Positions 13,508-64,000 of a DNA stretch of 64,000 nt are shown piece by piece; the stretch's first letter is position 1; each line of letters begins with the position of its first letter. Under the pieces are notes generated by a model that saw only the letters and a list, made by a program, of their open reading frames with translations, had not been told where the DNA came from and made no database searches. Made by a program: the position numbers and the translations under genes. The DNA is taken from IMG/VR virus record IMGVR_UViG_3300013104_000004, positions 19,484-83,483 of that record. One strand, written 5' to 3'. The stretch is from a virus.

Positions 13508-13729
13508 GGGGCCTCCTTCCGGCGCCCTAAGGGAACCTCGATGAGCGCCGGGAAGCCAGCGGCACGGCCCCAATACCACCGTGGGCACGTGCCGAGCGCG
13601 GCGGAACACGGACGAGCGAAGGTGAGCATGCTCACGCCGCAGATGGTCGCGATCATCGGAACCCCTCGGGTATCACGCGCGCGGGCGCCACCCAGGCGGC
13701 GCACAGCCGCTCCACTGAATCGCGTCAAG

Positions 13730-13871
13730 AGTTGGGCAGGGCTTGTCAGCCGAACGGCCTAATCGGGGGCCGCCGTCCGAGGCAACTGACTTGTGTGTAA
13801 CCTCGCCCTCGAACCGCTTCGAGACAGTCTTCGAGGCGTCGAGCTCGCGACGGAAGGGCACCCTGCCCGAC
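13730..13871. ncRNA. candidate structured RNA element upstream of the sigma operon
   Basis: 11-bp closing helix GTTGGGCAGGG/CCCTGCCCGAC enclosing several hairpins; no credible ORF. Confidence 0.4.
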
Positions 13872-14107
13872 CGCATGCGCTACCCGAATGGAGTCCAGCA
13901 ATGCAGCTTGGCCACGATCGTCAGACCCCCGTTCGGGATCAGCGCTCCCGTCGCCGCCAGACCGCTACCGCGGCCTGAGCCTCGGCCTAGCCGGCCCACC
14001 CCCAAAGCCACCGCCCCGGCGCTTCGACGCGCCGTAAGCGGCATCGAGCGCGCGCCCTCATCGGCTGCGCGCTCACCCCCGCGCGCCCTCTGCTGGGCCG
14101 GGAGCAC

Positions 14108-14125
14108 CTTGAGAACTCAACAGTG
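14108..14125 (+). promoter_or_regulatory. rrn-type boxA antitermination-like sequence
   Basis: CTTGAGAACTCAACAGTG, matching the actinobacterial rRNA leader boxA (TTGAGAACTCAA) as I recall it. Confidence 0.6.
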
Positions 14126-14148
14126 ACGACGGAATCGACTGATCCCCC

Positions 14149-14296
14149 GGCCGTGCGACGACTCTTCGGACGAGCGAGGCTGATGCCCCGGTGGGGCCGC
14201 TTGGAGACAGCGATGACGGGCGCGGCTTCCTCGGAATCCGACTGGACATCTGAACACCGTGGAAGCCGCGCCGCCCCTAACCACTCGTTGCACGGC
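14149..14296 (+). ncRNA. candidate structured ncRNA downstream of boxA
   Basis: closing helix GCCGTGCGACGA/TCGTTGCACGGC; internal 12-bp GGCGCGGCTTCC/GGAAGCCGCGCC; cUUCGg loop. Confidence 0.55.
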
Positions 14297-14436
14297 ATTT
14301 GCACGCCGTGACGCGAGCGAACACCCCAACGTACCGCCCCCGAGGCATAACACCTATGTCTAGTCAGGAAACTCTCAGCACGTGCTCACAGCGGCACACT
14401 GAGCAACACCGGCGCCAAGGTGTCAGGGTGGAATGC

Positions 14437-14676
14437 ATGACTAGCGTGAGACAGGCAGCCGAGTTCATCGTCCCGGCAGCGCCCCGCCGCTACCGGCGGG
14501 CACCGCGCGCGCAGCGCACCACCGCGACTGGCATCCGGCGACGACAGATCCCGGCGGCCGCAGTCTCGACCGCCCTCCAGCTCGCTGGCGGCGACGCGTC
14601 CCGGTTGCTATTCGATGGCGACGGCTCGGTCTACGTCCTCAACTCCCCGCGCCGTCAGGCCGATGGGACGGCATGA
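14437..14676 (+). CDS. hypothetical actinophage protein
   Basis: ALQLAGGDASRL...DGSVYVLN; ATGA-coupled to the lipoprotein. Confidence 0.65.
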   Translation: MTSVRQAAEFIVPAAPRRYRRAPRAQRTTATGIRRRQIPAAAVSTALQLAGGDASRLLFDGDGSVYVLNSPRRQADGTA

Positions 14677-15002
14677 GGACTCGACTAGCGATCACCCTTC
14701 CCCTGCTCACCCTGGCCCTCGCGGCCTGTTCGGGCGGCACGCCCGCCGCCGCGCCGACGGCCGCCGCCGACGCGAATGAGGCCGCGTACCTCGCCGCCGC
14801 CAGCGCGTACCCAGACCTGGCCGACCTCAGCGACGACGAGATCCTGAAGCCCGCCTACCTGATCTGCCGGGAGCTCGCCGCCGGCCGTATCGCGAGCGAG
14901 GGCACGCTCACCTGGGCGGCCGGCAATCTCGACGTCACGCCGGTGAACACCGTCGCCGGGCTGAAGGCCACGACGCTCTGCCCCGACTGGTACAAGGGCT
15001 GA
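14673..15002 (+). CDS. lipoprotein (DUF732-like)
   Basis: signal peptide with LAAC lipobox; EAAYL...AYLIC...TLCP. Confidence 0.8.
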   Translation: MRTRLAITLPLLTLALAACSGGTPAAAPTAAADANEAAYLAAASAYPDLADLSDDEILKPAYLICRELAAGRIASEGTLTWAAGNLDVTPVNTVAGLKATTLCPDWYKG

Positions 15003-15008
15003 GACGAA

Positions 15009-15044
15009 CGAAGGCCCCGCCCGGATGATCGGGCGGGGCCTTCG
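15009..15044. terminator. bidirectional hairpin terminator between convergent genes
   Basis: CGAAGGCCCCGCCCG / CGGGCGGGGCCTTCG. Confidence 0.7.
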
Positions 15045-15052
15045 GCTGGACC

Positions 15053-16093: not shown

Positions 16094-17230
16094 TCAGCGC
16101 GCCATGCGTGCCCGGAGTGCGGCCAGCGTGTCGCGCGCGGCGTCCGCCTTGACGCGCTCCGGCGCCTTGCGGGTGGCGGCGCGACGGGCGCCGGTGCCGT
16201 TGCTCGCAGCCAGCACGTAGGACCCGCCGACAGCGGGACCCGCCAGGCGCTCCGGGCTGACAGTGTGCCCGTGCGAGAGAGACACGCGCCGGAGTGCGTC
16301 CCGCTGTCCGTCGGCGCCGATGCCCTGCCCGGAGCCGAGGCCGCGCGTCATGGCGGTAGCGACAGCGGACCGGTACAGCCCTGAGGTGAGGTGCGGGACC
16401 GGGCGCGCGGCAGGCGGGCAGGGGACCGGACCCGCCAGCACGTGCACGGGCTGATATCCGAGCGCGTACGGGTACCCGTTGCTGTCAGTGAGCTCGGGGG
16501 ACCGGCGCCCGATGGCACGCACCCCCGGGCGCTGTCCGTCCCGCACGGACTGGCGCCACGTGCGGACCATGGCGCGCGCCGGGCGCTCCGCCAGTCCGTC
16601 GCGGTCCCGCTGTCCGCCAGCGCTGACGACGACAGCGCCGCGCCGGATGACGCGGCCTGCGTAGGTGTGCGCCACGGTCCGCACGTCGGCGGGCGCGTCG
16701 TCAGCGGCCAGCACGTCCGCCACGGGCGCGCCGACAGCGGCCAGCGCGACGGCCAGCGCGTCCCGCACGTCCGCCACGGTCCGCGTGTCGTCGGCGCCAG
16801 TGAGCGCCCGTGCGAGGCGCGTCGCGACGACGCGGCCGGACGCGCTCACCACGTCAACGATCGGCGCATGCGTGCCACGGGCAGGTACGTCGTCGCACGT
16901 GCGGCCGTCGCTGTCGCGCGACCCCAGAACGGCCGACAGCACGAGTGCCGTGGTGATATCCGGGCACGCGGCACGGGCGGCGCGGATACCGTCGGCGACA
17001 GCGTCCGCCAGCGTGTGCGGCGCCGCCACGGGCGCGGCGCCCGCCATGGCGTGCAACGTCTCCAACGGGACCGCGATCTCACGCGTACCCGTCGCGTCCC
17101 GCATGGCGCCGGTCACGGCTCCGTGTGCGTCGGGCTCCGCCCGGATGCCAGTCACGGCCGTCAGCGCGGATTCAAGCGCGGCGCCCGTCAGCGTCGCGAT
17201 GTGGTCCCAATCAATCGTCAGCGTGTGCAT
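16094..17230 (-). CDS. hypothetical protein with atypical composition (no Phe; TCGA-free DNA)
   Basis: GGGAG RBS; 378 aa; has its own terminator. Confidence 0.65.
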   Translation of the reverse strand: MHTLTIDWDHIATLTGAALESALTAVTGIRAEPDAHGAVTGAMRDATGTREIAVPLETLHAMAGAAPVAAPHTLADAVADGIRAARAACPDITTALVLSAVLGSRDSDGRTCDDVPARGTHAPIVDVVSASGRVVATRLARALTGADDTRTVADVRDALAVALAAVGAPVADVLAADDAPADVRTVAHTYAGRVIRRGAVVVSAGGQRDRDGLAERPARAMVRTWRQSVRDGQRPGVRAIGRRSPELTDSNGYPYALGYQPVHVLAGPVPCPPAARPVPHLTSGLYRSAVATAMTRGLGSGQGIGADGQRDALRRVSLSHGHTVSPERLAGPAVGGSYVLAASNGTGARRAATRKAPERVKADAARDTLAALRARMAR

Positions 17231-17490
17231 TGTGTCTCCCTAGTCTGGGCGCCCGTGTGGCGCCGCACTCATTCTGTCGGAATGTGCGCGGCGTTGCTTA
17301 ACAGTGAGCGGCGCGATTGTTTGCGCCGCTCGAAAGGCACGCAACGAACCGTGCCACCGACTTGCCTACGAGCTCGAAGCACAAACGAGCGCCCGCCGGC
17401 CTGCCTGCACGCCGGCGCACGCACACACGCTTCAGGGGCTCCAGTGGTGAGTTTTTCGGCCCTGCCAGTAGTGCGCCCGACTTCGGGCGC

Positions 17491-17581
17491 CGAAACGGTG
17501 CGCCGATTGCTTAGAGATGAGGCACGGTGCACGGCGACGACGACAACGTCGAAACGGTGCGCGAGTTGCTTAGAGATGAGG
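17491..17581 (+). repeat. tandem 32-bp direct repeat (candidate duplicated promoter)
   Basis: CGAAACGGTGCGCnnnTTGCTTAGAGATGAGG at 17491-17522 and 17550-17581. Confidence 0.75.
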
Positions 17582-17618
17582 GCGCCGCACGGTGCGGCGC
17601 ACGACGAGCGGAGACGAC

Positions 17619-17771
17619 ATGGACTTCGAGACCTACGAGCGGCGCCTGCGTGCGCTGCACGTCCAGGTGGGACGCGGCTTTCTGACGCCGGATGAGGCGT
17701 TCATGGAGGCACACGAGATCGCCGCCGAGTTCTGGATCCAGGCGATGACGCCGGTGGAGGTGCCCGCATGA
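17619..17771 (+). CDS. small hypothetical protein, first gene of the early + operon
   Basis: GGAG RBS; MDFETYERRLRAL... Confidence 0.65.
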   Translation: MDFETYERRLRALHVQVGRGFLTPDEAFMEAHEIAAEFWIQAMTPVEVPA

Positions 17772-17899
17772 CGTGGCACCCGCTTGACCTGCCAGCTCAC
17801 CTCCAGCTCCCCGCCGAGGCGCCTCCCGCGCCGCCGGTGACGTTCCACGACGACCCGTGGCAGCACGACCCCGACCGCGCAACGCGGCGCGGGTTCTGA
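17768..17899 (+). CDS. small hypothetical protein
   Basis: GGAGG RBS; ATGA coupling. Confidence 0.5.
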   Translation: MTWHPLDLPAHLQLPAEAPPAPPVTFHDDPWQHDPDRATRRGF

Positions 17900-17920
17900 G
17901 GCCGCTGCTGACTAGACGCT

Positions 17921-17970
17921 CTGCATGCACACCGACCAGCTCGGGGCGCGTGTTGTCCGCCTAGTCGGAC
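17921..17970 (+). promoter_or_regulatory. two-hairpin RNA element, copy 1
   Basis: CTGCAT-hairpin-TGT, one unpaired T, then a GTCCG/CGGAC hairpin; co-varies with copy 2. Confidence 0.55.
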
Positions 17971-17990
17971 TGAATGACGCCTGCTAGAGC

Positions 17991-18456
17991 TCCCGCTCAC
18001 AGCTTCCGGCGCCTTTCTCACCGGAAGTTGCTTGTAGGTGAGAGGTGGCGCCGCGAAACGTGGGGAAGCGATCCGCGGCGCCATCTTCCAGTCTTCCCGA
18101 AAGAGTCATTCTTCCGGGCGCAATCCGTGAAAATCGACCCCACCGAAAGGAGGTAGGAAATGCCCTTCTTCCAGCACGCCGCCATATTACCGTGGCCGCT
18201 GCACACCTGATCGACAGATCCCGCAGCCCCGCGGGGGTGAGTGACAGGAATGTGCCCAGCCGGCCAAAACCAGGCACGACCGAGAAAGCGGCATCCGACT
18301 CAGCCGCACGGACTCGCCGGAGTTCCGGCCCATTGGGGAAGGGCGAATCGAACCGGCAACAGTTGACCAGCGCTGTAGACCACCCGTGCATCCCGGCACG
18401 GGCCCAAGGCTGGCACCGGGTAAGCCCCCTGCCGGTCAAGCACCTACAGAGCGGGA
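17991..18456 (+). ncRNA. candidate large structured ncRNA (~470 nt)
   Basis: long-range helices 17991-17998/18449-18456 and 18033-18040/18441-18448; more than 10 nested stems; GNRA loops; no long codon-biased ORF. Confidence 0.7.
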
Positions 18457-18557
18457 CGACGTGAGGCCTGCGAGCACCAGTAGCGCTGCTGGTGCTGAGC
18501 CTGGCTGACCTCCTCGTCCGACGCAGAGACCTAGCGAACCAGCACGGCGCTGACGTT

Positions 18558-18618
18558 CTGCATCCACCCCGACCTTCCGAGCTCGGGGTGGGTGTTGTTC
18601 GGCAGCCCCTGTCCGAAC
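18558..18618 (+). promoter_or_regulatory. two-hairpin RNA element, copy 2
   Basis: GCATCCACCCCGA/TCGGGGTGGGTGT, one unpaired T, then GTTCGG/CCGAAC. Confidence 0.55.
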
Positions 18619-18650
18619 CACCCGAACGACACCTAGAGAGTGAGCACCCC

Positions 18651-18758
18651 ATGCGTGACGACAAGCGCAAGGCCAAGCAGGAGCAGACCCGCCGGAACTT
18701 CGAGCGGACGATGAAGACGAAGCCCTACGTGGGCGCCGCCTCCACCGTCGAGATCTGA
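18651..18758 (+). CDS. small basic peptide
   Basis: MRDDKRKAKQEQTRRNFERTMK...; next gene starts 2 nt later. Confidence 0.55.
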   Translation: MRDDKRKAKQEQTRRNFERTMKTKPYVGAASTVEI

Positions 18759-18760
18759 CC

Positions 18761-19009
18761 ATGGTCACCCTCGACAAGTCGCCCGCCATCCTCCAGGTCC
18801 GGGTCGACGTGCCCTTCACCTACACGCTCACCGCCGGTCACTCGATCGTCGAGGCGTTCCTGGACCTGGACGAGTCCGACCAGCGTGCGGTCCTGCGCGG
18901 CGCGGCCATCGCCGTGCTCACCGGGCCGGAGGTTGACCTTCCGGGCCTGCTGGCGAAGATCAACGAGCAGGCCACGTGGGCCCGACTCGGGATCGGCGTG
19001 CCGCGGTGA
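18761..19009 (+). CDS. hypothetical protein
   Basis: codon bias; part of the operon. Confidence 0.7.
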   Translation: MVTLDKSPAILQVRVDVPFTYTLTAGHSIVEAFLDLDESDQRAVLRGAAIAVLTGPEVDLPGLLAKINEQATWARLGIGVPR

Positions 19010-19311
19010 GCGTCAGCCTGGCCAAGCGCCCGGTCATCCAGGGCCTGCTCTGGGTGTGCGACGACTGCCTCTTCGCCCGTGAGGGTGACGGGACCGAGGA
19101 CCCGCACTGCGAGCCCTGGAACCGTGAGCCCGACACGGACGTGACGCTCGGCGTCGCCTACGGCCATGACGGCTGTGAGCACTCGCCCTACGCGGACGAC
19201 TACGACGAGCACTCCGAGTCCTGCGAGATGCACACCTTCTCGTCCCGGTCCTGCGACGGCTGCGGCTGCCACCTGGCCGGCACGCGTCACGCCTACACCT
19301 GGTGGGCGTGA
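19006..19311 (+). CDS. Cys-rich hypothetical protein
   Basis: CDDC...FSSRSCDGCGCHLAGTRH. Confidence 0.75.
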   Translation: MSVSLAKRPVIQGLLWVCDDCLFAREGDGTEDPHCEPWNREPDTDVTLGVAYGHDGCEHSPYADDYDEHSESCEMHTFSSRSCDGCGCHLAGTRHAYTWWA

Positions 19312-19442
19312 TGACCGGGAAGCACGTAGACACGGACCGGCCGCTGATCGTCGTGGACGTCGCCTACCGGGGGTACGTCCTGGAGTGGGCCTGGGGGACG
19401 CGCAAGCGCCCCCCCCACTGGGCGCGGTGTGCCTGTGGCTGA
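19311..19442 (+). CDS. small hypothetical protein
   Basis: TGATG coupling; MTGKHVDTDRPLIVVDV... Confidence 0.5.
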   Translation: MTGKHVDTDRPLIVVDVAYRGYVLEWAWGTRKRPPHWARCACG

Positions 19443-19581
19443 CTTCGAGCGCCTGGCTGCCGGTCTGTCGGACTACGACCGCACCACCTTGGAGTACCTG
19501 TTCTTCTCCGGCATCCGCGGTCCTGTTCTGGAACGCGTCGCCGCATCCCTTCGACCTTCGAGAAACGGAACCCCAGCATGA
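19435..19581 (+). CDS. small hypothetical protein
   Basis: VADFERLAAGLSDYDRTTLEYLFFSG...; ATGA-coupled to the next gene. Confidence 0.5.
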   Translation: MADFERLAAGLSDYDRTTLEYLFFSGIRGPVLERVAASLRPSRNGTPA

Positions 19582-19904
19582 GTCACGCCTACCCGGACGG
19601 CTTCATCTACACCGGCACGGTGAGCCACGGAACCCTGCGCTCCGAGGACCTGATCGCCACCTTCCTGCCGATCCTGTGCAACCTCGACCGGAACACGGCC
19701 AATCAGGTCGGTGACGGCGAGCACGACGAGGCGATCATCGAGACCGTGCCGTACCCGCTGCCGGACGAGCTGCTGGAGCCTGCCTCCGAACTGGCCCTGT
19801 GGCTCATCGAGAAGCTGGACGCTGCGGCGCCTGAGGGCTTCTACTTCGGCGCCCACGAGGGCGACGGCTCCGACTTCGGCTTCTGGCCCATCGAGGACGA
19901 CTGA
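19578..19904 (+). CDS. acidic hypothetical protein
   Basis: GTVSHGTLRSEDLI...APEGFYFGAHEGDGSDFGFW, a recurrent early-region phage protein. Confidence 0.8.
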   Translation: MSHAYPDGFIYTGTVSHGTLRSEDLIATFLPILCNLDRNTANQVGDGEHDEAIIETVPYPLPDELLEPASELALWLIEKLDAAAPEGFYFGAHEGDGSDFGFWPIEDD

Positions 19905-20263
19905 TGGGCGCCCGCGTCGTCACGAACCACCACATCCGGCGCCTGCGCTCCTGGCAGGACCTTCCGGCCGACGCCCGCCCGGACTTCGACTACGTCGAGG
20001 AGGACGAGCGCTGGTCCGACCGCTTCGTCGAGTACCGCGGCGCCTGGCACGACGTCATGGACGCCCAGGTGCTCGGTGACGGCCGACCTTTCGGATGGCC
20101 GATCGCTCCCGACTCGCCCCTCCAGGGATGGAACGCCGCTGCCAGCGACTCCGCCTGGACCGCGACCATCTTCCGCTGGCCCACCGAGGTGGAGATCTTC
20201 CGCCACGACCTGTACTCCGACCGCGACGGCTACATCATCGTCGGTCGCTACATCTCCGACTGA
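19904..20263 (+). CDS. hypothetical protein
   Basis: TGATG coupling. Confidence 0.75.
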   Translation: MGARVVTNHHIRRLRSWQDLPADARPDFDYVEEDERWSDRFVEYRGAWHDVMDAQVLGDGRPFGWPIAPDSPLQGWNAAASDSAWTATIFRWPTEVEIFRHDLYSDRDGYIIVGRYISD

Positions 20264-20274
20264 GAGAGGCACGC

Positions 20275-20730
20275 ATGATGCTCACCTTGCGCATCCCGCC
20301 CGGCGCGACGCACGCCTGCTACGGCAAGCTCGTCGACGCCGCCGGCCGCCCGCACGATCTGGACAAGGTCATGGAGTGGGGCACCGCGATCCGCGTGCGG
20401 ATCGAGGGGGACCAGACCTTCGTGGACACCGGCGTCCGGGACCGGACCGTGCCCGACCTGCTGGCCTTCTCGTACCCCGACGGCTCGCATCTTCCAGGGA
20501 CCGACACCGACCTCCAGGACCAGGCCCAGGCCTACGGGTGGGACGGTCTACTGACCGGCTTCACCGGGCAGTACGGCTACGGGGGGCCGTGCATGCACGC
20601 TTCGGAGTTCGTCGGCGGTGGGCTGGCCGACCACATCCTGACCACACCCGGCCTGTATGCCGTGACCGAGATCAGCGAGGACGACGGCGAGCCGGAGTCC
20701 TGGGCGATCGCCTACAAGGCCGCCGAGTGA
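20275..20730 (+). CDS. hypothetical protein
   Basis: GFTGQYGYGGPCMHASEFVGGGLADHILTTPG motif. Confidence 0.75.
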   Translation: MMLTLRIPPGATHACYGKLVDAAGRPHDLDKVMEWGTAIRVRIEGDQTFVDTGVRDRTVPDLLAFSYPDGSHLPGTDTDLQDQAQAYGWDGLLTGFTGQYGYGGPCMHASEFVGGGLADHILTTPGLYAVTEISEDDGEPESWAIAYKAAE

Positions 20731-20849
20731 CCCGCCGCTACCTCGCCATCCGCGCCTGCGTGCGCTTCCTGGTGGGCTTGACCTTCGCGGTCGCCTTCCT
20801 GTTCGTGACCGGCCTGCCGGTCTTCCTGCTCGGAGCCAACCCCTCCTGA
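20727..20849 (+). CDS. small membrane protein
   Basis: single hydrophobic segment; GTGA coupling. Confidence 0.55.
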   Translation: MTRRYLAIRACVRFLVGLTFAVAFLFVTGLPVFLLGANPS

Positions 20850-20886
20850 GCGATTCCGCCACCGTGAGCACCTGCCCACAGATCCA

Positions 20887-20955
20887 CTGCACCCCGGTCC
20901 GCCCTTCGGCGCCGGGGTTGCTTGTTGATGAGGGCCGCGTTCGCGGCACACGACG
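20887..20955 (+). promoter_or_regulatory. two-hairpin RNA element, divergent copy 3
   Basis: CTGCA-CCCCGG/CCGGGG-TGC, T, TGTTG...CGACG with UUCG loops; upstream of ardA. Confidence 0.4.
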
Positions 20956-20974
20956 TCCCTTGAAAGGGGAGCAC

Positions 20975-21571
20975 GTGAGCACCACGACGACTGACACGAC
21001 GCCTCGCGTCTGGATCGGATCCCTGGCCGCCTACAACGCTGGCGACCTGCTGGGCGACTGGTTCGAGGCGATCGACTGCCCGACCGACGCTACCGAGTGG
21101 GTCACGCAGATGATCGCCCGCGGGCAGATCCCCGCCGGCGACGACTGGTACCTGACCGCCCTCATTCAGCGCCACGAGGAGATCTGGGTCTTCGACCACG
21201 ACAACTTCCTCGGCCTGCTGAAGGGCGAGTGCTCGCCTTCCGAGGCCCAGCGCCTGGCCCAGCTGCTCGACGACGTGCAGGACGACCAGCGCGCCGCCTT
21301 CGGCGCCTGGGTCGGTGAGGGCAACGAGCCCGACACCTTCGAGGACCACTTCCATGGCGTCCACGAGTCCTTCCGGGACTACCTCAACGACTTCGTGCCC
21401 GACGTGCCGGACGAGCGTCCGCCGTCGTGGGACCACGAGGCCTGCGCCCGCCACGACGCCGCCGAGTTCTTCCGGCGGTACTTCGACTGGGCGGCCTACG
21501 TGCGCGAGATGGAGCACGAGTACACCGTCATCCGCCTGGGAACCGACCAGTACGCGGTGTTCTCCGCATGA
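20975..21571 (+). CDS. ardA: ArdA-family antirestriction protein
   Basis: PRVWIGSLAAYNAGDLLGDW...EEIWVFDHDN...RYFDWAAYVRE; acidic. Confidence 0.85.
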   Translation: MSTTTTDTTPRVWIGSLAAYNAGDLLGDWFEAIDCPTDATEWVTQMIARGQIPAGDDWYLTALIQRHEEIWVFDHDNFLGLLKGECSPSEAQRLAQLLDDVQDDQRAAFGAWVGEGNEPDTFEDHFHGVHESFRDYLNDFVPDVPDERPPSWDHEACARHDAAEFFRRYFDWAAYVREMEHEYTVIRLGTDQYAVFSA

Positions 21572-32325: not shown

Positions 32326-32335
32326 CACCACGCCC

Positions 32336-32372
32336 ACGAAGGGGGCTGCCCATACCGGGTGGCCCCCTTCGT
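32336..32372 (+). terminator. hairpin terminator
   Basis: ACGAAGGGGGCTGCCC/GGGTGGCCCCCTTCGT. Confidence 0.55.
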
Positions 32373-35347: not shown

Positions 35348-35427
35348 TCTGTCTGCCTTTCTGTCTGTCTGAAATCCAGGCGGTCACCACCCGGTGGCCG
35401 CCTTCTTCGTGCCCCAAGGAGGACCCC

Positions 35428-58094: not shown

Positions 58095-58562
58095 TCAGCT
58101 CCCGAATCCAGTCGTGCGCGGCGCCAGCAGCTGCGCCTGAGTCGCGACCTCGTCGCCGAGATCCTTGTAGGCCTGCCCGAGGAACATCAGGTGGTGCTGC
58201 ACCTTCACCGCCGGGGGAGAGGCGAGCGTCCCGTTCCGTGACTCGATCTGCACCCAGAGCGAGACCCACGCGCCGGTGTAGTGGCCCTTCACGTTGCGCT
58301 TCCACTGCCAGACGCTCGCGCCGGCCGCCGGCGGCAGCCAGGGCTCATCCGGCATGTTCAAGATCGCCGACCCGGACAGCAGGGCAGGTGCCTCCGTGAA
58401 CACGACATCGAACGAGAACGCCTTCGTCTGCTTGAAGTAGCCGACGCCCGTCGAGGTCTGCCTGTGCACCGAGAACGCCAAGCGCGCCGCGTTGTCCCGC
58501 TGCGTCTCACGCCGCGCGGTGCGCGCCTCCTGCGCCTGAAGCAGGTCAAAGAACCCGAACAT
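58095..58562 (-). CDS. tail-associated hypothetical protein
   Basis: coupled within the tail operon. Confidence 0.7.
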   Translation of the reverse strand: MFGFFDLLQAQEARTARRETQRDNAARLAFSVHRQTSTGVGYFKQTKAFSFDVVFTEAPALLSGSAILNMPDEPWLPPAAGASVWQWKRNVKGHYTGAWVSLWVQIESRNGTLASPPAVKVQHHLMFLGQAYKDLGDEVATQAQLLAPRTTGFGS

Positions 58563-60868
58563 CAGATCTCCTTCCCTGCCCGCGAGAACTCGACGCCTCC
58601 CTGGAGGGCATCGACCGCCTGGAGTGTGTTCGAGGTCAGCGAGGACTTATCGAACGCCCACGCCCCGTCGGGGTCGTCGCCAAGCCAGTGGGTCTGCAGC
58701 GTGTACGTCCACTGGCCGCTGTCCGCCGAGTTCGACGAGCTGATGCCGCTCACGTAGTGGTAGTAGCCCTCCGACGTCACCTGCTCGAAGACGCGCACCT
58801 GGTCGTCGATCTGGATGGCGGGGTGCGCGGGGATGCTGAGCCGGTCCTGGCGGTAGCGGAACATCTGGCGCACGGCGATGAGGTCGGCCGTGACCGTCGC
58901 CTCCTCCACCGAGGCGAAGTGCTGGTCCGTCCAGCCACCCACCCGGCGCAACCCGGTGTCGTTCGGGTTGTAGCCCGGCACCATGGCGGCGAACTTGCCC
59001 ACCGGGTTGGCCACGAAGATGCCCTCGCGGACGTTCGTCGACTGCAGGCTCGTGCTCAGGTCGAGCAGCGTGCGGGACTCGTCGATCGTGATCGCCGCGG
59101 TGGTGCGACCTGGCTTCGACGACAGCCCGCCGATCCAGTTGCCGCGGTCCCAGATGTTCGGCAGCCGCCACTGGGCCGCCCCCGTCTCGTCGAACCAGAA
59201 GTTGAAGCCGATGGCCTCGGCGACGTAGCGCACCCCGTCCATCAGGCTCTTCTGGTCGAACGCCGACGCCGCGATCTCCTCGACGGGCGCCGTGCCCGTG
59301 GCCTGGAAGTCCCCCCACACGCGCCCCGGCACACCCTTGCCGAGCACGTGGTCCACCGTCGCCGGGGAGCACGCGCGCTTCGTCCCGTCGCTGTGCCACA
59401 GGTAGCCGCCGCGCGGCCAGTACAGCCCGGCCCACGCGCAGAACAGCTTGATGATGTCGGTGTAGTCCTCGCACCGGCCAGGGTTCGACCCGGCCGGCCC
59501 TGCCTTCAGGCCGACCTGGCTGGACTCCGTGACCGTCTTCTTCACGGTCTTCGTCGTCGGGCCCCACAGCTCGACCTCGCGGATGCCAGCGCGGTACTTC
59601 TGGCCAGGCAGGCCGAAGCTCGGCAGGTTGCCAAGCCACAGCCGGACCATCGTGACGTTCTTGCGGGTGCCGAGCTTGATGACGTGCTCGCCCTCCCCGC
59701 TCAGCCCGCCCTTGTAGGCGACGTACGGCACGCCCTCCTCGTACTTGCCGCGCCCGTCGCGGTGGTAGGGCATCGAGCGGCCATCCACCCACTCGCCGCC
59801 GACCTTCAGCGACACGAAGGCGTTGTACCCGTCCTTGACCGTGCGGAACCGAACCTCCGAGATCGTGCCCTTCACGCCGATGTCCACGTACTCGAACGCG
59901 CTGCGGTACGACGCCCTCGCGTTGCCGACGGACAGGAAGTACGTCGAGCGCTTCCCGTCGAACGCATCCTTCGAGGAGTGCCCGTAGACCTTCGCGCCCA
60001 CGTACGCGCTCTCGGGCCACAGGTCGTTGCCCGAGCCCTCGTGCCAGATCTTCAGGCGGTCCACCGCCTTGACGGTGGCCTTCTCCTTGTGGCGCTCGGC
60101 CACCGTCACCTTGTCCGACCAGTCCCTGAACGTCACCGGGTGGAAGTCGTCCGGGACCACGGGCAGCATGCTCTGGTGGTCGAGCAGCAGCCTGCCCGGG
60201 TCACGACCCGAGATGGTGATGCGCCCCAGGGCCGACAGATCGATCTTGTCGATGAGCCACAGGCCCGTCTGCAGGACCTTCGAGTCGCGCTCCGGCGGGA
60301 CGTAACCGGGCGCGCCGATGGCCACGTCATCCGGGTTGTCCGACCCCCAGCCCTCGTACGTGCGCATGAGGTTGTCAGGCATCAGCAGGCCCGTGTACGG
60401 GTTCTGGTGGTGGTCCCAGCGGGTCGAGAAGGGCGACGTGCCGCGGCCCGGGCTCAGGAAGCCCGGGTTGTCGATGCCGCGCTTGCCGCGCGCCGCGGTG
60501 ATCGACGAGGCCACGTTGTTCCAGAGCTCCACCGTCACCGAGGCCGTGTCGACGTCCGTGCTGCGCGACCACGAGACCGAGATGACGTTCGGCAGCTCCA
60601 GAGGTGCCGCCGGCGAGGTGAACAGGAAGTCGGCGTAGGTGTTCGTCACCCGCTCGCCGTGGTTCGGATCGATGCCCGTCGGGTACGGGTTGAAGGACGT
60701 CACGTCCTCCCCGTAGACCGCCGGCACCCGCTTGAACGTCGTCATCAGCTCGAAGGCGTCCAGCCGCATCTTCGGGCGCTGGAGCGTGACCCGGCGCGTC
60801 GCCTTGCGGGGGCCCGTGAAGTCCCCGTTCTGCCAGACCGTGTCGAAGTACTTCGGCACCTCGCGCAT
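58562..60868 (-). CDS. large minor tail / baseplate hub (Tal-like) protein with F5/8-type insert
   Basis: second gene after the tape measure; DAFDGKRSTYF; C-terminal IPAHPAIQIDDQV. Confidence 0.7.
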   Translation of the reverse strand: MREVPKYFDTVWQNGDFTGPRKATRRVTLQRPKMRLDAFELMTTFKRVPAVYGEDVTSFNPYPTGIDPNHGERVTNTYADFLFTSPAAPLELPNVISVSWSRSTDVDTASVTVELWNNVASSITAARGKRGIDNPGFLSPGRGTSPFSTRWDHHQNPYTGLLMPDNLMRTYEGWGSDNPDDVAIGAPGYVPPERDSKVLQTGLWLIDKIDLSALGRITISGRDPGRLLLDHQSMLPVVPDDFHPVTFRDWSDKVTVAERHKEKATVKAVDRLKIWHEGSGNDLWPESAYVGAKVYGHSSKDAFDGKRSTYFLSVGNARASYRSAFEYVDIGVKGTISEVRFRTVKDGYNAFVSLKVGGEWVDGRSMPYHRDGRGKYEEGVPYVAYKGGLSGEGEHVIKLGTRKNVTMVRLWLGNLPSFGLPGQKYRAGIREVELWGPTTKTVKKTVTESSQVGLKAGPAGSNPGRCEDYTDIIKLFCAWAGLYWPRGGYLWHSDGTKRACSPATVDHVLGKGVPGRVWGDFQATGTAPVEEIAASAFDQKSLMDGVRYVAEAIGFNFWFDETGAAQWRLPNIWDRGNWIGGLSSKPGRTTAAITIDESRTLLDLSTSLQSTNVREGIFVANPVGKFAAMVPGYNPNDTGLRRVGGWTDQHFASVEEATVTADLIAVRQMFRYRQDRLSIPAHPAIQIDDQVRVFEQVTSEGYYHYVSGISSSNSADSGQWTYTLQTHWLGDDPDGAWAFDKSSLTSNTLQAVDALQGGVEFSRAGKEI

Positions 60869-61305
60869 CAGGCCGGACCTCCGTCGCCAACAGTCGGGGC
60901 AGACACCGCGAGGACCAGCGCGGTGATCGTGTACTCGTGCGACCAGTAGCGGCCGACCTTCGCCTTGCCGTTCGGCGGCTCCGCCTTGAACGCCTTCAGC
61001 ACCACCGTCAGCCGGCGCCCGAAGTGATCCCAGACGTAGATGCGACCCGACGGGCGGTCCAGCACCCACGAGCGCAGCGCCTCGTAGTGGGCGGCGTTCT
61101 TCGTCGTGCCGGTGAACGTCCACTGCTGGGGCATCTGCGCGCCCTCCCACAGCACCACCAGACCGCCGACCGCCACCGTGCCCTGCGTCGTGATCGCCTT
61201 CTCCGGGAACGGCGAGCTCATCGCGCGCGGGTTCCACGGGAACGTGTAGGCACCTGCCGACGATGGATCCGCCGGGTCATCGAAGCGCCAGCGCAGCACG
61301 GCCAT
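60868..61305 (-). CDS. distal tail-like protein
   Basis: directly downstream of the tape measure; YTFPWNP. Confidence 0.6.
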   Translation of the reverse strand: MAVLRWRFDDPADPSSAGAYTFPWNPRAMSSPFPEKAITTQGTVAVGGLVVLWEGAQMPQQWTFTGTTKNAAHYEALRSWVLDRPSGRIYVWDHFGRRLTVVLKAFKAEPPNGKAKVGRYWSHEYTITALVLAVSAPTVGDGGPA

Positions 61306-64000
61306 CAGGACCTCCGGGTGGTGTTGGCCGTGACCACCTGCGCGCCCGTGCCGAGCGCCGTCTGGAGCCACTCGACGACGGCCTGGAAGTCGGCGCCGTT
61401 GACGGTCACGGTGTTGTTCGAGTGCGAGTAGTCGCCCGTCTGAGTCGGGGCGCCCGAGCCGACCGCGCGCCGGACCTCGTAGATGGTCGGCAGGTCGATG
61501 TCGCCGATGTTCCACTGGCCCTGCATCTGGTCGGCCGCCGCCTTCATCAGCTGATCGACCTGGTCGAGCTCCTCCTGCTGCTGACGCGTGCGGTTCGCCA
61601 CCGCCGTCAGGCGGTCGTGCTCCGACTGCAGGTAGCTCATGTACTGGGTGTGCGAGATCCGCCCCAGGTCCTCAGCCACCTGCAGGTCGGAGATGCGCTG
61701 GCTGAACGCCGCCGCCTCCTGGCGGTTACGCGCGCCCTTCACGTCGACCTTGTCCTGCGAGATGGTGTCGCGACCGTCGCCGGCCGCCTTGTCCGCAGCC
61801 AGCTTCTCCAGGGCGGCCTGCGTGTCCAGGCGCGCCTGCTCCACCGGGTCCGTCAGGTCGCTGTGCAGACGGCGCACACGGTCCGCCTGCGAGCGCTCCT
61901 GCTCGGCGAGGCTCGCCTGCGCCTGCCGCAGCGCGCCCAGGGCCGAGTAGTAGCCCTCGGTGCCCTTCAGCTGCAGGTCCAGATCCCGCTGCGCGTTCCG
62001 CACACCAACCCGCGCCTGCTCCAGGCCCGACGAGTGGCCGGCGATGCGCGCCGACGCCTTCGCGTTCGAGCGCGAGACCAGCGCCTCCTCGTACTGCTGG
62101 TTCAGCTGGTTCAGCTGCTCCAGCTGGGAGCCCTGCTGTCCGGGGGAAAGCAGGCTCATCTCTCGGCGGACGTTCGCCATCTGAGTGCGCAGGCTGCCGA
62201 GGTTGTCTCGCGGGTCCACCTTCGAGAGGGCGTTCGCGTTGGCGTTCTGGACCTGCGCCTGGGAGTACGCGTACTGCGCCTGGTTCAGGGAGGCCTTCGC
62301 GGCCCAGTACGCGCTCGACGAGTCCTTGTCGTCCCCGAGGTCCTTGGCCAGTGCGTTCAGCGCCAACCCCGCGTTGCTGACCTGCACGCCTGCCTGACCG
62401 AGCGCGTTGCCGCCGTACACGCCGGCCGTGGCCCGGTTCTGCTTGACCGCGAGGGCCTCGGCCGCCTTCTGCTGGGCGATGGAGTTCTGCTGGACGGTGT
62501 GCTGCCCGATGAACGACGTGTCCACGTTCGGGTTCAGGAGCCCGGACCACCCGAGCGCACCGCTCGTCGCGCTCGGAGTCGCAGCAGCCATGTCGGCGGC
62601 GTACTGGGACATCTGCGCTGCGAACTGCTGGTCCAGCGCCTGCTGGTCGATCGCGAGCTGACCCTTGACGTCCGCGTTGGACAGGTAGGACTTCTGCACG
62701 TCGGCCCACGACTGGATGTCCGCCAGGCGATCCTGCAGCACGGCACGCTTCGCCACGAGGATGTTCGTGTCGAGCAGCTTCAGGTCGCGAAGCTCTTCAT
62801 CAGACGCGCCCTGGCCGGACGCCGCCATCAGATTCAGGCTCTCCCGCTTGGAGTTCTCCAGGTCGGCCAGGTACGCGCGGTTGCCGATCGAATCGCTACC
62901 ACTCAGCTGGGTGACCTGGTCCCGCCTCGCACCGGCGACCGTCGGCGCGAGCTGCAGGTATGCGCCGAGGTTCTCCCGCGTCGCCTTGCCGCCGAAGCTG
63001 TCCAGCACGCCCTGGACCATGGAGTTCATGGTCAGGTTGAAGACGTCCTCGAAGCCGCCGTCGGTGATCTCCTTCCAGGCCTCCGGACCGAGCTTGTCCT
63101 TCAGGGTCGACAGCGCGCGCCTCTTGATCGCCGCGGCGTCAGACTTGTCGATGATGCCGTCGCTACCGACCTCCGTCAGAGCATCCTGCGTGGCAGACGA
63201 CAGCGCCTCGCGGACCGCGGACTCCTCGTCCGCCGACATCGTGAAAGCCTCGACGCCCTTCTTCGCCCGCTTGCCGGCCTTCGAGGTGCCGGGGCCCGGG
63301 AAGAGCGGGTTCCACTTGTAGTACTCGCTGTCCTCCTGCGCCTGGAACAGATCGCGCTGGGAGGCGATCGCCTCGACGCCCTTCTGGCCAACGGCCTGGC
63401 CAACGCCCCAGAACTCGCTCTTCTGGATGACGGCGACCGCGCCGGCGGCACCCTTCGCGGTGTCGGAGAAATCGAACATGGCCTTGTTGAGCAGCGTGAG
63501 ACGCTCGGTCGCCGAGTATCCCGACTTCTCCAGGTCCGACAGGGTCCCCGTCAGGCCGTCCGAGGTGAAGTCCTGGAACGTGTTGCTCTTGTCCGCGACC
63601 TCCAGCGACGCCTGCGCGTCGGCCATCGCCGCAGCGCGGGCTGTCGCCTGCTTGTCGATGTCGTCCAAGCGCTTCTTGTCGTCGCCCGTCAGGAGCGAGG
63701 ACATGATCGCCGGGATGAGGTTGCCGACGTCGCCGGTCTTCAGACCGCCAAGACCCTGCTCCTCCAGCCCCTTCGCCGCGTCACGCGCCTGAGCGGCGAC
63801 CTCCTTCAGGGCCTCCGCCGTGTCCGCGCTTGCCAGCGCCAGGCGCGCCGTCTCGACAGCCGCCTTCGCGTCGCCACCGAGCTCGAAGCCCTTCTTCACG
63901 AGCAGCCCTGCACCGGCCACGCCGCCGGCGACACCGAGCAGGCCCAGGTTCGTCAGGCCCGTGAAGCCACGCACACGGCCCAGCGCACCCGTCTGCGCCA
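61305..64000 (-). CDS. tape measure protein, 3' part (start lies beyond the window)
   Basis: >890 aa, Ala/Gln-rich and helical; followed by tail genes. Confidence 0.8.
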   Translation of the reverse strand, partial: AQTGALGRVRGFTGLTNLGLLGVAGGVAGAGLLVKKGFELGGDAKAAVETARLALASADTAEALKEVAAQARDAAKGLEEQGLGGLKTGDVGNLIPAIMSSLLTGDDKKRLDDIDKQATARAAAMADAQASLEVADKSNTFQDFTSDGLTGTLSDLEKSGYSATERLTLLNKAMFDFSDTAKGAAGAVAVIQKSEFWGVGQAVGQKGVEAIASQRDLFQAQEDSEYYKWNPLFPGPGTSKAGKRAKKGVEAFTMSADEESAVREALSSATQDALTEVGSDGIIDKSDAAAIKRRALSTLKDKLGPEAWKEITDGGFEDVFNLTMNSMVQGVLDSFGGKATRENLGAYLQLAPTVAGARRDQVTQLSGSDSIGNRAYLADLENSKRESLNLMAASGQGASDEELRDLKLLDTNILVAKRAVLQDRLADIQSWADVQKSYLSNADVKGQLAIDQQALDQQFAAQMSQYAADMAAATPSATSGALGWSGLLNPNVDTSFIGQHTVQQNSIAQQKAAEALAVKQNRATAGVYGGNALGQAGVQVSNAGLALNALAKDLGDDKDSSSAYWAAKASLNQAQYAYSQAQVQNANANALSKVDPRDNLGSLRTQMANVRREMSLLSPGQQGSQLEQLNQLNQQYEEALVSRSNAKASARIAGHSSGLEQARVGVRNAQRDLDLQLKGTEGYYSALGALRQAQASLAEQERSQADRVRRLHSDLTDPVEQARLDTQAALEKLAADKAAGDGRDTISQDKVDVKGARNRQEAAAFSQRISDLQVAEDLGRISHTQYMSYLQSEHDRLTAVANRTRQQQEELDQVDQLMKAAADQMQGQWNIGDIDLPTIYEVRRAVGSGAPTQTGDYSHSNNTVTVNGADFQAVVEWLQTALGTGAQVVTANTTRRS

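Follow-up and report, generated by a model that had tools for sequence, protein, structure and literature searches.

The IMG/VR virus record IMGVR_UViG_3300013104_000004 holds the 83.5-kb genome of a tailed soil phage, of which we analyzed bases 19484 to 83483 (of 83,483 bp); this stretch of 64,000 nucleotides (nt) is called the window here, and all coordinates are window positions. The record has 123-bp terminal repeats and a G+C content of about 70%, and it includes genes for a tail fibre, an endolysin, a primase-helicase, and an integrase. A run of plus strand genes from about 17.6 to 37 kb makes up a rightward early operon that encodes ArdA, a DNA methylase, Ku, a ligase, and ATPases. Near its beginning, between two small genes (50 amino acids [aa], 17619-17771, and 43 aa, 17768-17899, both on the plus strand) and a 35-aa Lys/Arg-rich open reading frame (ORF; 18651-18758, plus strand), lies an untranslated segment of about 580 nt that is bordered by two copies of a short repeat, element A. 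Most likely, these copies, A1 and A2, are an ordinary RNA boundary signal.

Two copies of a two-hairpin element

Element A1 (17915-17970, plus strand) consists of a conserved 5' flank (17915-17922), a first hairpin of 11 pairs with two mismatches (17923-17953), a single junction U (17954), and a second hairpin of 5 pairs (17955-17970). The parts of A2 (18552-18618, plus strand) follow in the same order, with the flank at 18552-18559, a first hairpin of 13 perfect pairs plus 2 inner pairs at 18560-18595, the junction U at 18596, and a second hairpin of 6 pairs at 18597-18618. A preliminary description of this DNA had placed the two copies correctly: the hexamer CTGCAT begins at 17921 and 18558, and the second hairpins finish at 17970 and 18618. 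In the best local alignment (17915-17959 against 18552-18601), 39 of 45 positions are identical and there is one 5-nt indel; the score is 47, whereas 300 shuffles gave 16.0±2.5 and never exceeded 31. The window contains two occurrences of the common core, AGCTCGGGG.G.GTGTTGTYCG, against 0.01 expected, and there are none beyond A1 and A2 in the whole 83,483-bp genome. The repeat is real and lies far beyond chance. A fainter similarity extends to about 17995 and 18650 and fades at the start codon of the 35-aa ORF; at the matching position, A1 has no start codon. The interiors and preceding sequences of the two units that the copies flank are unrelated (score of 22, versus 21.7±2.7), and only the border module is repeated.

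The arrangement of hairpin, one unpaired base, and hairpin that the preliminary description had drawn is the minimum-energy structure of each copy folded alone, and RNAalifold found the same two-hairpin shape independently as a consensus of 16 pairs. Pair probabilities in the fold of A1 are 0.76 to 1.0, and A2 is very stable (z of -5.2 versus shuffles). When a 19-pair structure is laid over both copies, 35 of the 38 cells are paired. Both compensatory changes that had been named are present, one from G-C to C-G and one from C-G to U-A, at 2 of the 19 pairs. The three broken pairs are all in A1, where stem 1 has the mismatches A·C and A·G and stem 2 lacks its sixth pair; the hairpin loops also differ between the copies. 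A shuffle control on the covariation is uninformative with only two sequences (124/500). When 11 random substitutions were simulated in 56 ungapped columns, at least two compensatory pairs arose in 2.7% of 200,000 trials (P = 0.027), and at least two such pairs together with at most three broken ones arose in 1.3%. The evidence that the stems are under selection is thus modest, not strong. We read A1 and A2, from their sequences, as two diverged copies of one RNA module that would comprise a conserved single-stranded flank, a long GC hairpin, a U, and a short hairpin. A structured element that acts in the RNA of the early operon, as had been suggested, is the simplest reading of the two-copy repeat, given that the stems were kept through two double changes.

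A divergent third copy had also been proposed, at 20887-20955 (plus strand). We built a covariance model from copies 1 and 2 and ran it with filters off on the window and the remaining genome (83,600 nt). It recovered the training copies at 99 and 78 bits. Next in rank were copy 2 read on its opposite strand (26 bits) and a match of 20.5 bits inside a minus strand gene, and 20887-20955 was absent among the 122 hits at E<=10. The two hairpins there (20892-20917 and 20934-20947) are 16 nt apart rather than one base, and their predicted loops are CUUC and GUUC, not UUCG as had been stated. This site is not a member of element A; it carries a different motif, at 20917-20932. We call this motif B (GTTGCTTNNNGRTGAG), of which five copies, all on the plus strand, begin at 17293, 17506, 17565, 18027, and 20917, within 3.7 kb of the early region (0.02 expected).

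The untranslated segment between the copies

The segment that the copies enclose, 17971-18551 (plus strand), had been referred to as a large RNA. None of its frames has the GC3 signature (G+C at third codon positions) of coding sequence in this genome, and it has no Rfam match; likewise, a GC3-based gene caller gave no coding signal in 17899-18651. We considered a hidden gene in the gap and rejected it on the same grounds, as the 88-aa extension that would run over A2 has a GC3 of only about 0.67, compared with 0.94 in the 35-aa ORF directly after A2. We rejected tandem cassettes as well, because the two units have unrelated interiors. The region 17900-18660 folds at -335.5 kcal/mol, with a z of -3.4 from only 20 shuffles. 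Within the segment, a mini-ORF of 16 codons (18160-18210, plus strand) follows a strong ribosome-binding site, AAAGGAGG, and possibly specifies a leader peptide. The 35-aa ORF, for its part, has a composition reminiscent of arginine-rich RNA-binding peptides.

Placement of the copies is consistent with the earlier suggestion that they mark the boundaries of the untranslated RNA. A1 starts 16 to 22 nt past the stop codon at 17897-17899, and A2 finishes 33 nt before the ATG at 18651, from which at least eight plus strand genes (18651-20849) follow.

A1 and A2 as candidate transcript boundaries

We tentatively regard A1 and A2 as RNA elements at transcript boundaries on either side of the ~580-nt untranslated segment, a reading that leads the alternatives while falling short of being probable in its own right. 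We infer that the copies act as RNA and that transcript ends form at them, and likewise the choice between termination and cleavage. In the first case, RNA polymerase would sometimes stop on reaching hairpin 1 with its G/U-rich tail, which would then be a leaky, tail-poor terminator of the actinobacterial type. In the second, the transcript would be cleaved within the conserved flank of A. The A hairpins may then shield the new 3' and 5' ends, and the untranslated RNA would be separated both from the small genes upstream and from the gene run downstream.

This reading is favoured because the copies sit at borders, because only the border is repeated, and because their tails are as weak as those of clear gene-end hairpins. 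For the tails of hairpin 1 in element A, the scores are -2.35 and -2.69, with 2 to 3 U among the first 9 nt; the gene-end hairpins at 15012, 32336, and 35378 have tail scores of -1.8 to -2.5. A score of -2.5 is reached at 5.7% of all positions. The A1 junction is moreover dense in stop-like signals, since within 33 nt of A1 there is a further hairpin with a T-rich tail, followed by motif B and then by a hairpin of 12 to 14 pairs.

Several observations weigh against the boundary reading. Ahead of 20917, neither motif B nor a promoter-like site serves the genes downstream of A2 (18651-20849), and A2 is unlikely to be an efficient terminator, because at least eight genes follow it without an evident promoter. 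Hairpin 1 and the adjoining flank are 87% identical between the copies, which exceeds what a terminator needs. A1 alone is not stabler than its shuffles (z of -1.07, with 29/200 as good), and with its flanks another fold wins (z of +0.35, 125/200 as good); its hairpin 1 is weak, at -12.8 kcal/mol compared with -24.9 kcal/mol in A2. Energy does not fix the strand either, as the two strands fold about equally well (-19.9/-19.9 kcal/mol for A1 and -35.7/-33.4 kcal/mol for A2). With 13 pairs in A2 and 11 plus two mismatches in A1, the helices are shorter than the ~20 bp expected of an RNase III substrate. Finally, the sequencing runs that contain the region are two DNA rhizosphere runs, one of which may be the source while the other has identical fragments, and no RNA run.

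Known systems resemble element A in part. Early-region terminators without U tails occur in phage phiC31. Intrinsic terminators of high-GC actinobacteria and actinophages share with element A a GC hairpin, a weak G/U-rich tail, and a neighbouring second hairpin, and A1 lies just past a stop codon; they differ in that A2 is inside a gene run that needs read-through and in that sequence is kept beyond structural need. For clustered-hairpin terminators, our comparison draws on the abstract of PMC8355165. As a model for cleavage, we considered the early region of phage T7. There, repeated, similar hairpins between cistrons are RNase III sites, and the operon also carries an anti-restriction gene. 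The likeness lies in repeated similar hairpins in an early operon with such a gene (here ardA); the A helices, at 11 to 13 pairs, are shorter than the approximately two helical turns that RNase III prefers. If the copies are boundary hairpins, the result is routine annotation of an orphan phage and delimits a long untranslated early RNA that merits separate study.

Alternative explanations

Of the competing explanations, the one that survives best is a duplication at a module junction. An ordinary leader or terminator hairpin would have been doubled when motif B copy 4 and the untranslated RNA were inserted or exchanged by recombination, leaving a second copy without a role. We consider this unlikely, although it accounts well for a repeat that is limited to the border module between unrelated interiors. 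It also fits the similarity that reaches the start of the 35-aa gene at A2, with A1, which has no start codon there, resembling a leader that lost its gene, and the location of all three broken pairs in A1 is what decay would produce. Free drift, however, would be unlikely to yield two double changes that preserve pairing (P = 0.027), and A1 retains the two-hairpin fold as its minimum-energy structure, at the pair probabilities given above.

A second alternative is that A1 and A2, alone or with the RNA that they bracket, are an RNA-only device for processive antitermination, similar to put or canT, that serves the 19-kb operon with ardA, Ku, ligase, and methylase; we think this improbable. In its put-like form, for which our doubt is stronger, the nascent two-hairpin A RNA would bind the elongating host polymerase in cis, and the polymerase would then read through the hairpins at 18003-18035, 20892-20925, 32336, and 35378. 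A need for read-through does exist. Strong hairpins stand between plus strand genes at 32333-32372 (-33 kcal/mol) and 35380-35406 (-17 kcal/mol), and the genes 3' of the hairpins at 32336 and 35378 require some read-through, because only about 20 nt separate these from the next start codon.

The put-like architecture claimed in the preliminary description holds in outline and not in detail. As described in the consulted passages of PMC9378689, putL and putR of phage HK022 are about 70 nt long, with two stem-loops that meet at a single base; their stems are long and irregular, with bulges, a triplex, and non-canonical pairs, and contact the polymerase; putR lies about 270 nt from the start site, and there is one put copy per early promoter. 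Element A matches these RNAs (PMC9378689, same passages) in having two related early-region copies, two hairpins joined by one unpaired base, and differences that partly compensate for each other, and if motif B marks promoters, each A copy is a few hundred nt downstream of one. It departs from them, to the extent that those passages of PMC9378689 describe the stems, in that its hairpins span 48 and 59 nt rather than about 70, stem 2 has only 5 to 6 pairs, and stem 1 of A2 is a perfect 13-pair helix without bulges. Both copies are in one operon, 640 nt apart, and not one per operon, and the host is actinobacterial. Terminator-like hairpins occur both before and after A1 and A2, and three motif B hairpin sites are upstream of A1, outside its cover. 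Element A itself has no homologue in the collections searched (see below) and no Rfam match. The put RNAs act in cis, upstream of the terminators that they override, and their read-through depends on the beta' zinc-binding domain. To our knowledge, the put class is known only from HK022-type phages, and a Nus-type boxA elsewhere in this phage (see below) would put another antitermination route at hand.

The comparison can be extended to the whole segment from 17.9 to 18.65 kb, which, by analogy only, could be a counterpart of canT. In Tn916, canT is a cis-acting RNA of which at least 341 nt are needed and which overrides terminators in a long operon, according to the portion of PMC11658703 on which we draw. 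Like canT and the EAR element of B. subtilis, both RNA-only processive antiterminators, the segment is untranslated, extends over several hundred nt, and precedes a long operon that has terminators within it (PMC11658703, same portion). It has no sequence or Rfam match to these elements, and canT is not described there as a flanking repeat. If A1 and A2 were antiterminators, they would be the first RNA of this kind beyond the HK022 group and the elements of Firmicutes, would show that nascent RNA can control the elongating polymerase without a protein in high-GC Gram-positive hosts, and could provide a compact part for operon expression in Streptomyces.

A protein-binding RNA site similar to nut, at which the hairpins would be bound by a small phage protein such as the 35-aa Lys/Arg-rich peptide to regulate elongation or translation, seems very improbable. 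Hairpin 1 and its flank are kept more tightly than structure requires, and the basic ORF, with its high GC3, starts 33 nt past A2. However, the peptide has no solved-structure match at E<=10, among protein families it matches only an unnamed PHROG, and weakly (E of 0.0015), and it is far shorter than lambda N, a protein of 107 aa; the difference between the hairpin loops of the two copies also speaks against this reading. Least probable of all is an element that acts as DNA, either a palindrome to which a protein binds or the hairpin ends of a small, non-autonomous IS200/IS605-type transposon carrying the untranslated segment: two direct, imperfectly palindromic copies do bracket a ~580-bp non-coding insert, and both strands do fold equally well, but the phage has no additional copy, 401 sampled Actinomycetes genomes yielded no significant match to the segment, no transposase gene is nearby, and the symmetric double changes favour a folded single strand over a duplex site that is read as sequence.

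Motif B and its hairpins

The five copies of motif B score 26 to 33 bits in a genome-wide weight-matrix scan, in which the next best site reaches 14. They cluster at a divergent control region, and both ardA and the first small gene have a copy 40 to 60 nt upstream. Copy 1 (17293-17308) is followed by a GC hairpin of 9 to 11 pairs. Copy 2 (17506-17521) lies inside a 59-bp tandem duplication, and copy 3 (17565-17580) is followed by a hairpin (17582-17600), a GGAGA ribosome-binding site, and the ATG at 17619. On the first base of copy 4 (18027-18042) ends a 7-pair hairpin (18003-18027), for which TTGCTTGT forms the T-rich tail, and a hairpin of 12 to 14 pairs (18045-18084) comes after. Copy 5, at the site once taken for a third copy of element A, is 42 nt upstream of ardA (20975-21571, plus strand; PF07275, E of 8e-18). 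A GC hairpin precedes every copy, and at both 18027 and 20917 it ends on the first base of the motif, where TTGCTT opens a T-rich tail that scores -3.35 to -3.56; 1.35% of genome positions reach -3.0 and 0.15% reach -3.5. Four of the five copies also have a clear GC hairpin after them, often of the GGCGCCGC type; at 17506, the hairpin that follows is only weak. The two halves of the tandem duplication (17488-17522 and 17547-17581, 89% identity) hold two motif B copies and have an 8-base run, GGTGCGCG, in common with ribosomal RNA (rRNA) leaders, yet the duplication fails the boxA profile described below.

From its sequence and placement, motif B could be an asymmetric operator or a phage-specific promoter; alternatively, it could be a terminator or a processing linker between two protective hairpins. 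The stoperators of mycobacteriophage L5, a temperate actinophage, are short, asymmetric, intergenic motifs with one orientation relative to transcription. Motif B is likewise short, asymmetric, uniformly oriented, and intergenic, and the phage studied here also has an integrase. It differs in having five copies in 3.7 kb rather than dozens genome-wide and in being flanked by hairpins at each copy. A candidate regulator is the 378-aa protein that is divergently encoded next to the control region (16094-17230, minus strand); it has no Pfam or PHROG match and five relatives of 35 to 57% identity in public assemblies.

Other identities for motif B were tried and set aside. A consensus scan for sigma-70-type promoters gave 0 sites, and no copy appeared among the nhmmer hits at E<=100 with the actinobacterial 16S-leader boxA profile, which excludes a boxA mimic. 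Resemblances to sigma-54 promoters and to hammerhead ribozymes, seen by eye, are not present in all five copies and have no Rfam support. For a promoter read by a phage RNA polymerase, we looked to two adjacent orphan proteins of about 890 aa (58562-61237 and 61305-63974, minus strand), neither of which has a Pfam or PHROG match. The nearest named Atlas clusters of the 889-aa protein are tape-measure families, at 0.88 to 0.90, which is only a weak lead.

Searches for relatives of the region

We found no usable relative of this phage region in cultured phages, plasmids, IMG/VR, Joint Genome Institute (JGI) metagenomes, a set of one genome per prokaryote species, or the 401 Actinomycetes genomes. 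The tallies for the last set include two genomes flagged as unpublished (G044 and G032), and only the statement of no significant match rests on them. In the window, none of 4227 Rfam families reached its gathering score, and no transfer RNA or transfer-messenger RNA was detected; at E<=10, the only Rfam matches in 17500-21200 were two chance matches to eukaryotic families. With blastn, five phage records aligned over at most 3% of the query, and no plasmid did. Short matches of 21 to 56 nt to the untranslated segment occur in 40 of the 401 Actinomycetes genomes, and the best, on inspection, has an 18-nt identical core without flanking similarity.

Protein queries gave a similar picture. ArdA had no match in IMG/VR or in metagenomes, and the primase-helicase had none in IMG/VR; among cultured phages, the latter had 257 matches, all in the lowest identity band, of which the 25 listed are at 22 to 29%. 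The neighbouring 82-aa and 402-aa proteins match only themselves among 5.8 billion proteins, and an alignment of the relatives of the 378-aa protein retrieved 0 IMG/VR loci, 0 of the 401 Actinomycetes genomes, and no cultured phage. Pattern scans for element A returned two hits in IMG/VR, inside a peptidase-like ORF, two in species-representative genomes, and two in metagenomes, all without the rest of the element. Those for motif B returned 0, 1, and 2 hits (the pattern with 0 hits was badly spaced), about the number expected by chance and none in a recognisable relative of the region. These pattern hits are chance matches in unrelated contexts.

A boxA elsewhere in the phage

For the nhmmer profile of boxA we took 16 actinobacterial 16S leaders, 15 of which contributed their boxA block; the remaining leader (L022) is without the block and was dropped. 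Its sole significant hit in the phage, at 14104-14125 (plus strand), is a perfect boxA of the actinobacterial rRNA-leader type, with an E value of 8e-6 and 17 consecutive identical bases, and the next best hit has an E value of 0.52. Judging by this match, it looks like the phage borrows host Nus-factor (boxA) antitermination in at least one other unit. Three types of signal can be told apart in this one phage, namely element A, motif B with its five copies, and a true boxA of the rRNA type, which makes the early region a good target for transcript mapping. The boxA site is in a second non-coding gap, which covers about 800 nt (about 13630-14437). Downstream of the site is a small lipoprotein-like gene (14673-15002), at whose end stands a strong hairpin (15012-15045).

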